Origin: Klebsiella phage phi1_146015
Sequence record: PP889466.1
Length of the DNA: 64,000 bases
Direction: 5' to 3' (one strand)
How positions within the stretch are numbered: position 1 is the first letter of the stretch; the number at the start of each line of letters is the position of its first letter. A model generated the notes under the pieces. That model did not search any database and was not told the origin of the DNA. It saw only the letters and a program-made list of their open reading frames with translations. Shown one piece after another: positions 4,885-56,575 of this stretch. The position numbers were made by a program, and so were the translations under genes.

Positions 4885-4940
4885 CAGTTGACAGTGAGTG
4901 CGGGTGTGATAAGATACCCGCACAAACAAAGGAGAATATT
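4885..4940 (+). promoter_or_regulatory. sigma70-type early promoter with embedded stem-loop
   Basis: TTGACA-16 nt-TAAGAT. The hairpin GTGCGGGT...ACCCGCAC spans the spacer and -10. Followed by SD AAGGAG and the ATG at 4941. Confidence 0.5.
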
Positions 4941-5207
4941 ATGGTTATTCGTGAAAATGAAAATGTGATGGTTGAATTGGGTGATCGTGTTAAAGTTGAG
5001 AATCCTGTTGAACTTCAACTGAAACTCAACCAGTTAGGCCAGCGCATTGCTGATAAAATTCCTGCTGGTTATACAGTGAAGATTGTCCGCGATGGTCAGT
5101 TCTCCTTCCTTCTGGGTATTTTGAGTCAACGTAACATCGTTGAACAACAGTTCGGGATTCAGTGGAATCCGGTAACTAAATTCGTAGCATGGGCGGGAGT
5201 ATTATGA
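4941..5207 (+). CDS. hypothetical protein
   Basis: 88 aa ORF directly downstream of a promoter and SD. Confidence 0.45.
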   Translation: MVIRENENVMVELGDRVKVENPVELQLKLNQLGQRIADKIPAGYTVKIVRDGQFSFLLGILSQRNIVEQQFGIQWNPVTKFVAWAGVL

Positions 5208-5458
5208 GCGACAAAATCAGAAAGATTCATCAGGCATGGTTATGTACTGAACCAACGATGCTTCGTTATGGTTGTGTGTTTGGGTTGGTTGATAATGATC
5301 CTCAACAGGACATTGCAACAAGTCCGGTTGTTGAATATGCGATTCCGGCGAACAAATCGTTTGTTGAAGTGGTGACACGTTCAGGTACTACGTATCACAT
5401 CGTTAACCCTGATAACGATTTCATCAAAGACATTCTGAAATATATGGATGATTGTTAA
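5204..5458 (+). CDS. hypothetical protein
   Basis: ORF 5189..5458. The ATG at 5204 has the GGGAG SD. Confidence 0.4.
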   Translation: MSDKIRKIHQAWLCTEPTMLRYGCVFGLVDNDPQQDIATSPVVEYAIPANKSFVEVVTRSGTTYHIVNPDNDFIKDILKYMDDC

Positions 5459-5988
5459 TGAAATTCAAAGTAATGAATATGTTGAGAGCAATCGATCGGA
5501 GTCAACGTTCTCAATGTATTTCGAATCGTGTAGGTGCTATTATCGCGATAGGTGGTCGTGCCGTCGCGTGGGGCGAAAATAATACGGTTGACCTTGATTG
5601 TCGTTGCAACTCATGCAACAATCATATGGTGAATGATGACGGTAAACTGAAAGCGGTTGATCGTCCTGAACATTCAGCATGGTCAAACTATAACGAAATT
5701 CATGCAGAAATGAAAGCGCTATTGAGTGCGCACACAAGAGGTGTTATACTCAAAGACGCAGCACTTTACACAACTGCATCGCCTTGCCCTAACTGCGCGA
5801 AACATATCGAATGGTATGTTGCTAGCGGGGCGATTACATCGGTGTATTATCTCGATAAATACGATCGTGGTAATGATGAATGGATTTCACGCTTGCAGAA
5901 ATATGGCTGTGTCGTGGAACAAATTAAACGGGAAGAGTTAGAATCGTTTATCGACTTTTCCAAAGTAGTGTTTAACAACAATGAGTAA
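5458..5988 (+). CDS. cd: dCMP deaminase
   Basis: Zinc-binding HAEMKAL and SPCPNCAK motifs. The N-terminus aligns with T4 Cd. Start probably the ATG overlapping the upstream TAA. Confidence 0.8.
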   Translation: MKFKVMNMLRAIDRSQRSQCISNRVGAIIAIGGRAVAWGENNTVDLDCRCNSCNNHMVNDDGKLKAVDRPEHSAWSNYNEIHAEMKALLSAHTRGVILKDAALYTTASPCPNCAKHIEWYVASGAITSVYYLDKYDRGNDEWISRLQKYGCVVEQIKREELESFIDFSKVVFNNNE

Positions 5989-5992
5989 AGAA

Positions 5993-6337
5993 ATGTCTGA
6001 ACTGAAAGTAAAAGCATCCGGCGAATATGTGATCATCGAAGCTACTGCGCGTCCGCAGGGTTCCGAAATCAAATCTGAATCTGGTATCGTGGTTGGTGTA
6101 CGCCAGCACGGGGAACAACCTTTTTATGGTAAAGTTGTTTCTGTAGGCGTAGACGTTCCAGCAGAAGCGGCAGAACGAATCCTGGGTAAATATATCCCAC
6201 TGCCAAGCGCTCACATGGCGAATGTTCCTGACCCTGATCTGGTTGCGGGTTACATTTCCGAAAAAGAAGCAAAAGAGAAGGAAACAAAATACGTTTCCGC
6301 ACATTACAAAGCAATCCAGGCAATCTACGAGATCTAA
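5993..6337 (+). CDS. 31: co-chaperonin GroES-like, gp31
   Basis: MSELKVKASGEYVIIEA... aligns with T4 gp31 (MSEVQQLPIRAVGEYVILV...). C-terminal YKAIQAIYEI matches T4 CHYKAIPCLYK. ORF track 5981..6337. Confidence 0.7.
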   Translation: MSELKVKASGEYVIIEATARPQGSEIKSESGIVVGVRQHGEQPFYGKVVSVGVDVPAEAAERILGKYIPLPSAHMANVPDPDLVAGYISEKEAKEKETKYVSAHYKAIQAIYEI

Positions 6338-6339
6338 AA

Positions 6340-6591
6340 ATGGCTAAATCAATTCAAGCAATTATCGCTGATACCGTCAGCAAATCCAAAAAGCTGTTCG
6401 ACAAAGGCGAAATTCTGGAAGCCCCAGCGCGTATTGACGTAATGACAGCAATGATCATTGATGCGCATCAGGGTAAACTTAAATCCCGTGCCGATGAAGT
6501 CATGGCGTACATCGTCCAGTTCGAAGACGTATGTAAGTACGCGAAAGATGTTGATCCGCTGGTTCGCGAAATCTATCGCAAACAGTTCTAA
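6340..6591 (+). CDS. small protein at the rIII position (possible rIII homologue)
   Basis: 83 aa immediately after gene 31, as rIII is in T4. No motif check possible. Confidence 0.35.
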   Translation: MAKSIQAIIADTVSKSKKLFDKGEILEAPARIDVMTAMIIDAHQGKLKSRADEVMAYIVQFEDVCKYAKDVDPLVREIYRKQF

Positions 6592-6598
6592 AAAATTT

Positions 6599-6674
6599 GC
6601 AGGTGTAGTTCAATTGGTAGAATATCTGGTTTCCATCCAGATTGTTGAGGGTTCGAGTCCCTTCACCTGCTCCA
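6599..6674 (+). tRNA. tRNA-Gly (anticodon UCC)
   Basis: Cloverleaf read by hand. Acceptor GCAGGTG/CACCTGC. D arm GTTC..GAAT. Anticodon stem TCTGG/CCAGA with loop TTTCCAT. T arm GAGGG-TTCGAGT-CCCTT. 3' TCCA. Closely resembles E. coli glyT. Confidence 0.8.
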
Positions 6675-6823
6675 ATTCGGGTGCGTAGCGCAATGCCGTT
6701 AAATGGTTCGGAATATGCAACCATATCCCACGGGATAGGCTCTGTTGGTATCCGGTAATAGGTTCCCCGGAATGCGGGGTGAAGTAAAGAAACTTCCAGC
6801 CCACTAAACAATGTGAGATCTAT

Positions 6824-54997: not shown

Positions 54998-55236
54998 TAC
55001 TGCGCCCTGAACTTACGATCGTATGCTGCCAGCGCTTTATCTGCTGCATCAACAGCCTGAGTGTGTTTGTTAGCGGATTTCTCGCTAAACACTTCGCGGT
55101 AAATGCTAACCCAGAGAGATCGGCGGGTATGTTCGCTTTCTTCGTTGACACGAGAAGCCGCAAAAGCGTTATGCTCTTTGATTAGTTGCGCCAGTTGCAC
55201 ATCATGATTGTTTTGTTGAATAGCTGTAGAAGTCAT
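54997..55236 (-). CDS. hypothetical protein
   Basis: 79 aa. Confidence 0.4.
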   Translation of the reverse strand: MTSTAIQQNNHDVQLAQLIKEHNAFAASRVNEESEHTRRSLWVSIYREVFSEKSANKHTQAVDAADKALAAYDRKFRAQ

Positions 55237-55499
55237 AATTCACCTATTTCTTTCAGTTCAGTTTTCAGTTTTTCGAGGGTTGATTGGTACTGAATGCCGT
55301 GTTGTGGATTCCCAAGTCGGGCATAATACAGCGTACCAGTTTTGTTGATTTCCGACAACACCTCTTGATCGAGGGTAGCCGGATCAATACCGAAAGCCAT
55401 TTTAAACATGGTTTCAGCGTCTGGGGCGAATCCGTGAGAGAATGCAAACCCCAGATTTTTATCAAACTGCATCAGGGATACTTTATTCACTTTTTCCAT
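55233..55499 (-). CDS. hypothetical protein
   Basis: Internal ATG of ORF 55233..55619. The longer version would overlap the upstream gene by 137 nt. Confidence 0.35.
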   Translation of the reverse strand: MEKVNKVSLMQFDKNLGFAFSHGFAPDAETMFKMAFGIDPATLDQEVLSEINKTGTLYYARLGNPQHGIQYQSTLEKLKTELKEIGEL

Positions 55500-55785
55500 A
55501 ATGTTCTTCGTAGTCATCGCATTCAGGGAGATAAGTTTCGCAGAACATGCACAGCGTGAAGAAAGTAGGCTGGCGAATCCCGATATTATCAGGTAAGTAC
55601 ATCCAGAACGTGTTAGCAAACACGATGAACGTTTTCAGGTTTTCAACGGTTACGGTACTGACACCATCATAACCGGATTGAGCAATTGCGCGTTCCAGGG
55701 GAACAGGGTATTGCTCGCAGTAATCGACGTAATGATCGCTTGTTACAAGCGCATTAGCCGCTTTTACGAGATCGGTAATTTTCAT
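55483..55785 (-). CDS. hypothetical protein
   Basis: 100 aa. Confidence 0.4.
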   Translation of the reverse strand: MKITDLVKAANALVTSDHYVDYCEQYPVPLERAIAQSGYDGVSTVTVENLKTFIVFANTFWMYLPDNIGIRQPTFFTLCMFCETYLPECDDYEEHYGKSE

Positions 55786-56120
55786 GCTCTTACATATTCC
55801 ACTTTGACAGGTTTTGCGATAAGGCGTTCTTTGGTGAAGCCTTGCCCGTTACAGATATCACAGGTAACGTTGAAATCTTCCATCTGGTCAACCCAGCCAG
55901 AATCCGGCAAACCAGAAGGATACGTGTTAACACGCACAACTTCGAACCCTTTACCCTCGCATTTCGGGCATTTGTGCGGGTACTGGGATTTAACCATACT
56001 CAGCAGTTGCCCCAGCGTCGTTGAACGATCGAAGCGTTCGACCAGTGCCATTACATCAGCAATACGAATCGAACCAGCATCAATAACGGTATACAGGTTT
56101 TTCGGTACATTTGAGCACAT
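55782..56120 (-). CDS. small protein with two DnaJ-type CxxCxGxG zinc-finger repeats
   Basis: CPKCEGKGF and CDICNGQGF. Internal ATG of ORF 55782..56234. Start uncertain. Confidence 0.4.
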   Translation of the reverse strand: MCSNVPKNLYTVIDAGSIRIADVMALVERFDRSTTLGQLLSMVKSQYPHKCPKCEGKGFEVVRVNTYPSGLPDSGWVDQMEDFNVTCDICNGQGFTKERLIAKPVKVEYVRA

Positions 56121-56132
56121 AGTATATTTCTC

Positions 56133-56270
56133 ACTTAAAAAATTTTTTGATGAAAGAGAGGAACAATCCACCACCGAACATGATCCAGTATCCCGCGCCG
56201 TCACCGTTAAACAGGACATACACAGCGACACCATAGCAAAAGATTTCCGCGATATTCAGTAAGTTTCTCA
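56133..56270 (-). CDS. small membrane peptide (45 aa)
   Basis: MRNLLNIAEIFCYGVAVYVLFNGDGAGYWIMFGGGLFLSFIKKFF read by hand. Confidence 0.25.
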
Positions 56271-56360
56271 TAACTCCCTCCTTTGTCTACACCAGGTATT
56301 TTACCAGAAAGTAGATTACTGTCAACAACAAAGTTTTATCAACCCACTTATCACCAGTCA

Positions 56361-56501
56361 TTAGTAATCCTCTACAGGTTGAGAAGATGCAACGCTCAGG
56401 ATACGGAAAGAGCATTCATTCCATTTGCAGTAAGTTTTCGCACAGTGAACAGTGCCTTTCATTACAAACCCGTTTGAGAACACCAGCCAGTAAAGTTTCA
56501 T
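56361..56501 (-). CDS. hypothetical protein (46 aa)
   Basis: Internal ATG (MKLYWLVF) of ORF 56361..56558. The upstream part lies in the PeSL 5'UTR. Confidence 0.35.
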   Translation of the reverse strand: MKLYWLVFSNGFVMKGTVHCAKTYCKWNECSFRILSVASSQPVEDY

Positions 56502-56504
56502 GAT

Positions 56505-56575
56505 TGCCTCCTTTGTTTCGACACCCCTAATATAACAAAAGCCCCTGCACGAATGCAAGGGCTTTTTTTCAAATA
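56505..56575 (-). promoter_or_regulatory. PeSL-like early promoter cassette (minus strand)
   Basis: Reverse complement is AAAAAAAGCCCTTGCATTCGTGCAGGGGCTTTTG-TTATATTAGGGGTGTCGAAACAAAGGAGG. Confidence 0.5.

Follow-up and report, generated by a model that had tools for sequence, protein, structure and literature searches.

Repeated promoter–stem-loop cassettes resembling PeSLs in the early regions of a Klebsiella Pseudotevenvirus, and their likeness to a repeat of T1-like phages

INTRODUCTION

Promoter-early stem-loops (PeSLs) are regulatory cassettes of T4-like phages which have been described for RB49/phi1, T4/PST and KVP40/nt-1, RB43 being named in passing (Arbiol 2010, PMC2839356; Comeau 2014, PMC4122927). 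For RB43 itself, an early-promoter consensus with G at −33, G or C at −36 and an UP element has been predicted (Nolan 2006, PMC1524935), and a promoter of that consensus gave rise to an early transcript on a northern blot (PMC3486835). Separately, a 21-nt intergenic direct repeat has been reported in phage TLS and seen also in T1, Rtp and Rogue1, its function being an open question for the authors (PMC11447400, 2024). Here we analyse a stretch of 64,000 nt of Klebsiella phage phi1_146015 (sequence record PP889466.1; hereafter the window), in which cassettes made of a promoter, a stem-loop and a leader recur in front of small open reading frames (ORFs). A previous reading made without database searches (the sequence-only reading) had listed 12 such copies, whose coordinates are kept here as names; with the copies added by our analysis, the window holds 18 cassettes.

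As in PeSLs, a sigma70-type early promoter is combined in these cassettes with a stem-loop placed over the −35, over the −10 or upstream, one of the five described positions; an A/T-rich region precedes it, a Shine–Dalgarno sequence (SD) and an ATG form the 3′ end, the surroundings are variable (hyperplastic) regions before ORFans, and close relatives show indels or replacements at or in the element. The window differs in its −35, mainly TTGCA where PeSLs have TTGACA, in the hairpin of its main class (AAAGCCC(C)...GGGGCTTT, whose 5′ arm includes the −35), and in a 21-nt transcribed leader and a 21-nt upstream ATAGCAC element, which belong to the consensus of the window but not to the PeSL definition. 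Moreover, promoter and terminator activity, which is predicted for the window copies, has been shown for RB49/phi1 with reporter assays, and mini-circles between neighbouring elements have been shown there as well. We found no paper describing PeSLs for this phage group, and a literature search with the leader and repeat strings returned nothing relevant. The identification of the cassettes as PeSLs by architecture and behaviour, put forward by the sequence-only reading, appears largely supported by their layout and by five in-cassette crossovers against relatives, but its attribution of PeSLs to RB43 goes further than the passing mention in the PeSL papers.

RESULTS

Cassettes recur beyond chance in two early gene blocks

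The window aligns with Enterobacter phage PF-CE2 at about 96–99% identity over most of its length, in collinear blocks broken by indels, and with other relatives, Olmo, Margaery, GAP161, EcL22g and ENT3 among them, at 94–98%. PF-CE2 is classified in Straboviridae as Pseudotevenvirus leb, and the window is placed by its sequence in Pseudotevenvirus, the genus of RB43 and RB16; the genome carrying the cassettes is that of a T4-like myovirus of 178 kb. All cassette copies lie within two blocks of small genes of early type, at ~4.8–15 kb (+ strand) and 22–57 kb (− strand), with baseplate genes between them. In the complete genome of EcL22g, a leader-motif scan together with a scan for hairpin-type promoters gave 19 distinct cassette sites, 13 of them in the part homologous to the window and the others at about 96, 106, 110, 111.4, 111.9 and 124 kb; one more, at about 159 kb, has the 21-nt repeat.

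We regard the cassettes as probable copies of one composite regulatory module, which recurs throughout the variable early regions of this Pseudotevenvirus genome and at which genes are turned over by recombination. All 12 listed coordinates hold a promoter-like cassette in sense orientation directly 5′ of an ATG, and at least six further cassettes, all on the − strand, had been overlooked (Table 1). The ORFs behind the 12 listed copies encode 46–96 amino acids and are uncharacterised, as had been claimed: DUF5417 was the sole Pfam match among them, and the ten searched against PHROGs all fell into families of ‘unknown function’. The leader 21-mer ACACACATCGAAACGAAACAG is exact at 8885, 13893, 50996(−) and 52719(−), recurs with two to three mismatches at 50635(−) and 23327(−), and appeared in none of 100 shuffles; a position weight matrix of the leader core detected 11 copies, all in sense orientation, and its scan gave no further leader copies above simulated background. 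A leader had been ascribed to each copy, and most do carry it, but the motif is absent from 4885 and 34597. The 30-nt hairpin AAAAAGCCCTTGCGTTCGCGTGAGGGCTTT is indeed identical in 23322 and 34597, and other cassette pairs share exact stretches of up to 33 nt. Repeat finding without prior grouping clustered the copies, and an nhmmer profile of the hairpin-type copies retrieved seven window copies (E = 1e-13 to 1e-21). Shuffles, weight matrix and nhmmer thus agree that the copies align beyond chance, one of the two points on which the original proposal had been made to depend. A generic sigma70 scan gave promoter-like sites at shuffle level (47 vs 37, 36 vs 38 and 35 vs 36 expected), therefore such a scan alone cannot support promoters; an Rfam scan found no family for the cassettes, only tRNA-Gly (6599–6671) scoring above threshold.

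In the arrangement that we propose, the full module would span ~100 nt and begin, behind the stop codon of the upstream gene, with the 21-nt A/T-rich element ATAGCACnnnTTGnTAAA. A GC hairpin of 12–13 bp would follow, with an A-run before and a U-run after it, the inner half of its 5′ arm being the −35 TTGCA; loop, 3′ arm and T-run would make up a 17-nt spacer to a TGn-extended −10 TATATT, behind which would come a conserved initial transcribed sequence (CAT plus CGAAACGAAACAG), an AAGGA SD and the ATG. In RNA arriving from upstream, hairpin and U-tract would stop transcription, while in DNA the same bases would act as a strong host sigma70 promoter that restarts it, and the A-rich, nearly unstructured leader would keep the ribosome-binding site open. 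Through this combination of stop, restart and open leader, each cassette would start an insulated early unit of 1 to about 11 small genes, an organization which replaces the earlier idea that cassettes bracket each accessory gene. Since copies share up to 33 identical bases, genes could be added, deleted or replaced between copies or between phages, as in the PeSL mechanism. Variant copies would have the hairpin shifted onto the −10, no hairpin, or the layout of T1 phages, with the element 22 nt from the −10 and no separate −35.

Hairpin, promoter and terminator

Seven copies (six of those listed plus 41454) have a hairpin over the −35 and are here called hairpin-type. They fold at −18 to −21 kcal/mol (z-score −4 to −5.7 in the six listed ones), none of 200 shuffles being as stable, and rank top in a generic terminator scan. 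Their hairpin starts 0–17 nt after the upstream stop codon and is followed by UUU(U)GUUAUAUU. A GC hairpin with a U-tract after a stop codon, as in rho-independent terminators, is found in these seven copies and at 8806–8835, but not in the hairpins that surround the −10. The suggestion that the hairpin doubles as terminator is hence plausible for the seven copies with hairpin plus U-tract, and for those only. Likewise, a −35 embedded in the 5′ arm of a GC hairpin, as first described, is found in half of the list (13842, 23322, 34597, 50995, 52716 and 56505), always with a TTGCx −35, a 17–18 nt spacer and TATATT or TATTAT, but not in the other six; in 4885, 9128 and 14205 the hairpin surrounds the −10 and the U-tract is absent, and in 8848 the stem-loop lies upstream of the −35.

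A sigma70-like −35/−10 pair at 16–18 nt is present in 11 of the 12 listed copies. Upstream of the promoters stand A-runs or an ATAGCAC...TAAA element, TGn precedes the −10 in most hairpin-type copies, and AAGGA or GGAGG is found 5–9 nt 5′ of the ATG in all copies. The promoter motif fits the predicted RB43 early-promoter consensus. In the GenBank records of Margaery and KP27, orthologous sites are marked as terminators; at the orthologue of 13842, the KP27 record shows a ‘putative terminator’ that overlaps with a ‘putative middle promoter; discovered using MEME’.

The double use of the hairpin was further analysed in 46 distinct hairpin-promoter variants, taken from the window, five relatives and IMG/VR contigs including RB43, RB16 and KP15-type genomes. 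Every variant folds (mean −18.4 kcal/mol), and TTGC is invariant; the fifth base of the −35 and the spacer base paired with it change together (A-T 17, G-C 8, C-G 5), and the outer stem pair alternates between G-C and A-T. These pairs come from per-sequence folding anchored on TTGC, a count against a single structure on a MAFFT alignment having been dropped since stems with three and four C shift register. The complementarity of the 3′ arm, located in the spacer where a promoter needs no particular sequence, points to selection on the hairpin. In turn, in the seven hairpin-type copies of the window the −35/−10 spacing stays at 17–18 nt despite loops of 4 to 6 nt, and this constancy argues for selection on the promoter geometry.

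A conserved A-rich leader

Around the expected start, the consensus reads CAT and then CGAAACGAAACAG; with the −10 at −12 to −7 and CAT at −1/+1/+2, ATCGAAACGAAACAG is therefore the predicted transcript start, and CGAAACGAAAC is a segment of the conserved leader. The initiation regions (−32 to +21) of 11 leader genes show a median folding energy of −2.3 kcal/mol against −5.3 kcal/mol in 116 others (p = 9e-5), and 48% of their bases are A. The leader is exactly conserved in RB43, RB16 and KP15-type genomes, even where the hairpin has diverged. In our reading, the start of the transcript and the initiation of translation would both be served by this sequence, which is probably tuned for strong expression. 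A link with a RegB-type nuclease was also considered and rejected, as the gene labelled ‘endoribonuclease’ in Margaery has an SLT domain and GGAG is absent from most cassette SDs.

A 21-nt element shared with T1-like phages

The element ATAGCACnnnTTGnTAAA stands at the start of three cassettes of the window (13842, 50632 and 50995) and is missing from the other 15. This 5′ end, ATAGCACnnnTTGnTAAAA, is the 21-nt repeat of T1-like phages, whose consensus aaATAGCACnnnTTGnTAAAA is present at the three sites with 0–1 mismatch (3 vs 0.57 expected). With the repeat of TLS the window copies have in common the consensus, the orientation with respect to transcription and the intergenic position after a stop codon, as well as a similar distance to the ATG, 71 nt in 50632 versus about 76 nt in TLS (PMC11447400); in 13842 and 50995 it is 92–93 nt. 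A 97-nt query taken from cassette 50995 matched 357 phage records, Drexlerviridae included, and in ~50-kb Klebsiella Webervirus and 44-kb Escherichia coli Veterinaerplatzvirus genomes the match extended over the whole query at 73–77% identity. Two T1-like genomes, Webervirus cp24 and Veterinaerplatzvirus 12397V, contain 15 and 18 copies of the repeat, and in 26 of these 33 TAnnnT lies exactly 22 nt past TTGnTA, with CAT(C)GAAAC about 5 nt further, the same succession of repeat, 22 nt, TAnnnT and CAT(C)GAAAC as in the window. Most of these copies have a small GC hairpin between repeat and −10, so T1-like phages too appear to have PeSL-style stem-loop promoter modules. The differences from the TLS repeat are that only three window cassettes carry it, that 13842 and 50995 have an intervening GC hairpin with its own −35, and that the host genome is a 178-kb myovirus, not a siphovirus of 45–52 kb. 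From repeat to −10 there are 22 nt in 50632, 33 nt in 13842 and 32 nt in 50995, the hairpin adding 10–11 nt to the T1 layout, or about one helical turn; in EcL22g at 158879(−) the repeat stands 32–33 nt before the −10, with a TTGACG −35 between them.

The ORF behind 50995, a DUF5417 Frd.1-like gene, shows 71% identity to the Webervirus KA1-2 gene behind a homologous cassette versus about 46% to T-even Frd.1; cassette 50995 and its gene would therefore have passed between the two families. No T1-like homologues were found for the ORFs behind 13842 and 50632, the DUF5417 unit being the only one shared as cassette plus gene. Tentatively, the cassette may be a promoter module exchanged between two unrelated groups, Pseudotevenvirus/Slopekvirus and Drexlerviridae. 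Its ATAGCAC...TTGCTAAA part would then define a class of non-canonical promoters, as an upstream element recognized at a fixed helical phase, 22 nt from the −10 or about one turn further, by some factor or through an unusual contact with RNA polymerase, and the CATCGAAAC start region would be a second functional element. If this were true, the open question of the T1-like repeat would be answered, and regulatory cassettes would be shown to move genes across phage families.

The 21-nt element also contains a 15-bp palindrome, TAGCA-N5-TGCTA, in which the arms are conserved and the centre varies (CTTTT, CGAAT, CTAAT or CAAAT), and for which a bound factor, an UP-like contact or an RNA hairpin are possible readers. 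An alternative view of the cassettes starts from this palindrome: they could be factor-dependent promoters, whose activity and timing are set by a host or phage protein, activator or repressor, bound to TAGCA-N5-TGCTA rather than by contact with a −35. The constancy of the arms around a changing 5-nt centre is what such a site would lead one to expect, and so are the fixed distances from element to −10 (22 nt in 26/33 T1-like copies and in 50632; 33 nt in 13842 and 32–33 nt in EcL22g). The 22-nt gap exceeds a normal −35/−10 spacing and that layout offers no usable −35, and the TLS authors found only three sigma70-like promoters, leaving the repeat unexplained (PMC11447400). On the other hand, only 3/18 window cassettes possess the element, most have a normal −35 at 16–18 nt, the element has some resemblance to an UP element (TTTTnnnAAA), and a candidate protein has been neither sought nor found; we judge this explanation rather unlikely for the cassettes. 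A sigma54 promoter (TGGCAC-N5-TTGCW) was rejected, given that TAGCAC-N3-TTGC falls 2 bp short of the fixed GG-to-GC spacing and reads AG instead of GG, and that a −10 hexamer is found at 22 nt.

Recombination at cassettes

Breakpoints were mapped by chaining blastn alignments between the window and five relatives, and five events have their crossover within a cassette. ORF 8923-9123 is absent from four of the five relatives, the junction being CATCGAAACGAAAC, common to copies 8848 and 9128. The single hybrid cassette of the window at 50995 corresponds in Margaery to two cassettes, the first of hairpin type and the second without hairpin, with an additional ORF between them; the junction overlap is 34 nt (50995–51028). 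Olmo, EcL22g and ENT3 do not have ORF 29291–29506 and show a single hybrid of the 29507 promoter and the 29250 leader; the same three phages retain the 14205 promoter with a different SD and ORF, the crossover lying within ATCGAAAC. Finally, what stands behind the hairpin-promoter of 34597 differs between the window, PF-CE2 and Margaery, giving three alternative contents. Two insertions occur at a cassette edge, one of roughly 670 nt in three relatives, exactly at the 5′ edge of 23322 (23385–23392), and one of 164 nt in three relatives, exactly at the 5′ edge of 50632 (50700). In a KP15-type genome, homology with the window starts exactly at AATAGCAC of copy 13842.

The IMG/VR contig 2595698971 was compared with 13893–14202 of the window: the two are identical through cassette, leader and the first ~35 nt of coding sequence, beyond which the ORF becomes markedly more divergent. 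This mosaic junction suggests recombination using cassette and gene start as homology.

Breakpoints fall on 8/12 listed cassette junctions versus 27/95 others (Fisher p = 0.018), and on 9/16 versus 26/91 with the added copies (p = 0.04). Direct repeats at the 16 window-specific segments are long only at 8907–9168 (14 nt, exact), the others measuring 5–9 nt. Cassette-mediated gene shuffling, as first envisaged, is supported by the five in-cassette crossovers, but most gene gains and losses happened elsewhere and the enrichment is modest.

Homing or HNH endonuclease genes of 530–580 nt are present in PF-CE2 and Olmo at 1396–1740, 3203–3223 and 44537–44594 and not in the window, and at 12252–12310 Olmo and EcL22g have a 565-nt insert, annotated as hypothetical protein, which the window does not contain. 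The indels at these four places have no relation to cassettes.

Inventory of cassettes and other features of the window

Table 1. Cassettes and cassette-like promoters of the window. Names are those of the sequence-only reading unless marked as unlisted; promoters are given as −35, spacer length and −10
Feature	Coordinates	Strand	Promoter	Hairpin	Leader or SD	ATG	Other
4885	4881–4943	+	TTGACA-16-TAAGAT, TG-extended −10	4898–4923, around −10; −20.2 kcal/mol, z −6.9	SD; leader motif absent	4941	
8848	8806–8925	+	TTGCAC-16-TAAAGT, 8857–8884	weak, around −10 (−8 kcal/mol, z −2)	exact leader, 8885–8905	8923	separate terminator 8806–8835, upstream of −35
9128	9124–9197	+	TTGACC-17-GAACAT, 9134–9162	9147–9168, around −10; −16.8 kcal/mol	CATCGAAACGAAACTG, 9168–9183	9195	
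13842, full form	13838–13932	+	TTGCAT in hairpin; TATATT	13854–13885; −21.2 kcal/mol	exact leader, 13893–13913	13930	T1-type 21-nt repeat, 13838–13855
14205	14203–14273	+	TTGCTT-17-TACATT with TGn, 14206–14234	14214–14239, around −10	partial leader, 14238–14255	14271	
23322	23307–23391	−	TTGCGT in hairpin; TATATT	23356–23385	near-leader, 23327–23347	23309	
29250	29247–29313	−	TTGCAT-17-TATATT, 29285–29313	none given by folding (z +0.3)	GTTGAAACGAAACTG	29249	−35 within upstream ORF
29507, unlisted	29504–29563	−	TTGCAT-17-TACATT with TGn		CCGAAACAAAGGAGG	29506	
34597	34594–34683	−	TTGCGT-17-TATTAT	34640–34671, same as in 23322	divergent leader	34596	
Promoter, unlisted	35859–35906	−	TTGACT-16-TATAAT	35885–35906, abutting the promoter			
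Promoter, unlisted	36828–36893	−	TTGACA-16-TAGAAT		degenerate leader TATCGAATTGAAAC		precedes SPFH-domain gene
41454, unlisted, hairpin type	41451–41523	−	TTGCAA-17-TATTAT	41487–41519 (−20 kcal/mol)	leader motif absent	41453	
Cassette, unlisted	46615–46712	−	TTGACA-16-TAATAT		CAACGAAACAG	46617	degenerate ATAGCAC repeat
50632, T1-type layout	50626–50702	−	TGn-TATTGT	AT-rich, within the 22 nt between repeat and −10	leader, 50635–50655	50628	repeat TTAGCACGAATTGCTAAA, 50682–50699
50995, full form	50976–51071	−	TTGCAA-17-TATATT	51025–51055	exact leader, 50996–51016	50978	repeat 51054–51071; DUF5417/Frd.1-like ORF
52716	52701–52785	−	TTGCAG-17-TATATT	52748–52778	exact leader, 52719–52739	52703	
Promoter, unlisted	56269–56325	−	TTGACA-16-TAAAAT with TG		SD AAAGGAGGG	56271	
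56505	56499–56571	−	TTGCAT-18-TATATT	56537–56569 (−20.2 kcal/mol)	short leader GTGTCGAAACAAAGGAGG	56501	

A second repeat family consists of plain terminators without promoter, AAAAAAGCCCC(TTTC/GAAA)GGGGCT, at 22321–22354, 28930–28963, 31398–31431 and 46316–46349; those at 28930 and 46316 have an SD and ATG directly after them, and ORF 28734–28928, beside one of them, is absent from three relatives. The divergent intergenic region of 268 nt at 59288–59555 holds inverted GC-rich motifs similar to GAGCGAAGCGAAC / GTTCGCTTCGCTC around an AT-rich core, and a similar motif, AGCGAAGCGAACAG, is located at about 23690–23730 in the unannotated stretch 23680–23812. Gene calls are poor at 23389–23812 (−), where relatives annotate a 96-amino-acid ORF, 23389–23679, with ~130 nt apparently non-coding upstream.

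The 232-amino-acid ORF at 30716–31411 (+), opposite in strand to its early neighbours, matches Phage_tail_NK, the tail needle knob of Sf6 type (E = 7e-40), and, below threshold, DUF1737 (22 bits, cut-off 24); a segment of 750 nt, 30689–31439, is shared by the window and Margaery and absent from PF-CE2, Olmo, EcL22g and ENT3. At 41524–42168 (−), the Margaery orthologue is labelled ‘endoribonuclease’, an annotation which is probably wrong, as Pfam gives an SLT lytic transglycosylase domain (E = 1.5e-5). A tRNA-Gly (UCC) lies at 6599–6674, relatives carrying an extra 80 nt at 6594 that is tRNA-Met in the Olmo annotation, and ORF 6824–7108 is present in the window and absent from four of five relatives.

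DISCUSSION

Several observations weigh against the view that the cassettes are copies of one module at which genes are turned over. The enrichment of breakpoints is lost once the comparison is restricted to intergenic gaps of 35 nt or more (9/16 vs 8/24, p = 0.2), and the first gene behind a cassette, whose more frequent absence from relatives had been proposed as a test, is not lost more than other genes (4/16 vs 16/91, p = 0.49). Most indels are located at plain gene boundaries with 5–9 nt of microhomology or correspond to gains and losses of homing endonucleases. Conservation of the leader could reflect copying between cassettes, that is, homogenization by recombination, and not function; hairpins that enclose the −10 and have no U-tract may not terminate transcription; and 50632 has two small AT-rich hairpins only, with an extended −10 and no −35 at 16–18 nt. 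In addition, we infer promoter strength, start sites, termination efficiency and early timing, all four of them, from the nucleotide sequence. The weak enrichment and the mostly cassette-free indels therefore indicate that cassettes are one route of gene turnover, not the main one, and the PeSL authors concluded likewise for their phages (Arbiol 2010, PMC2839356; Comeau 2014, PMC4122927).

Part of these data would be equally expected if the cassettes were ordinary early promoters and terminators, alike because they serve a common RNA polymerase and common ribosomes, with indels clustering there since few breakable sites spare genes. The lack of significant enrichment among the longer gaps and of extra variability in cassette-led genes favours this explanation, as do the 26/35 junctions with breakpoints that are cassette-free and the two insertions at the edge of a cassette instead of within it. 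However, exact identity of up to 33 nt exceeds what a promoter needs, hybrid cassettes cross over within the shared leader, and one cassette together with its ORF is common to an unrelated phage family, so that we deem it unlikely that ordinary signals account for the copies. It is very unlikely that they are middle-class and not early promoters, as labelled in the KP15 and KP27 GenBank records and, for the orthologue of 13842, a further point against early cassettes: the KP27 depositors' ‘middle’ label comes solely from a motif search with MEME, in the KP15/KP27 paper genes are sorted into temporal classes according to genome region and no transcript data are reported (PMC5219037), the −35, −10 and UP elements fit host sigma70, no MotA-type Mot box ((a/t)(a/t)(a/t)TGCTTtA at −30, 11–13 nt before the −10) occurs at that distance, and neither motA nor a middle-promoter consensus was reported for RB43 and its group (PMC1524935).

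Composite regulatory modules thus remain our preferred reading, and they can be placed among what had been recorded for the same phages. The early promoters of RB43 (PMC1524935) and the annotations of KP27, KP15 and Margaery concern the same or a sister genus, the same motif and orthologous marked sites, but in those annotations the features are treated separately, and the shared leader, the cassette nature, the junctions and the T1 link go unremarked. The cassettes recall morons as well, small accessory genes with their own promoter and terminator between other genes (Hendrix 2000, discussed in PMC2839356), although morons have no bounding conserved repeat, while in the window it is the regulatory sequence that is repeated and within which the crossovers fall. 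What is new here is the genus-wide consensus of ~100 nt, the junctions resolved to the base and the connection with a T1-like phage repeat that had gone unexplained.

Overall, these data extend the PeSL concept to Pseudotevenvirus and Slopekvirus, including many Klebsiella, Enterobacter and Cronobacter phages that are candidates for therapy. The ~100-nt consensus is usable by annotators and phage engineers for locating transcription-unit boundaries and safe insertion points, and the repeat of T1-like phages may form the upstream half of a promoter whose spacing is fixed at 22 nt. The cassette and Frd.1-like gene common to T4-like and T1-like lineages of the same hosts would be direct evidence of gene flow together with regulatory signals.

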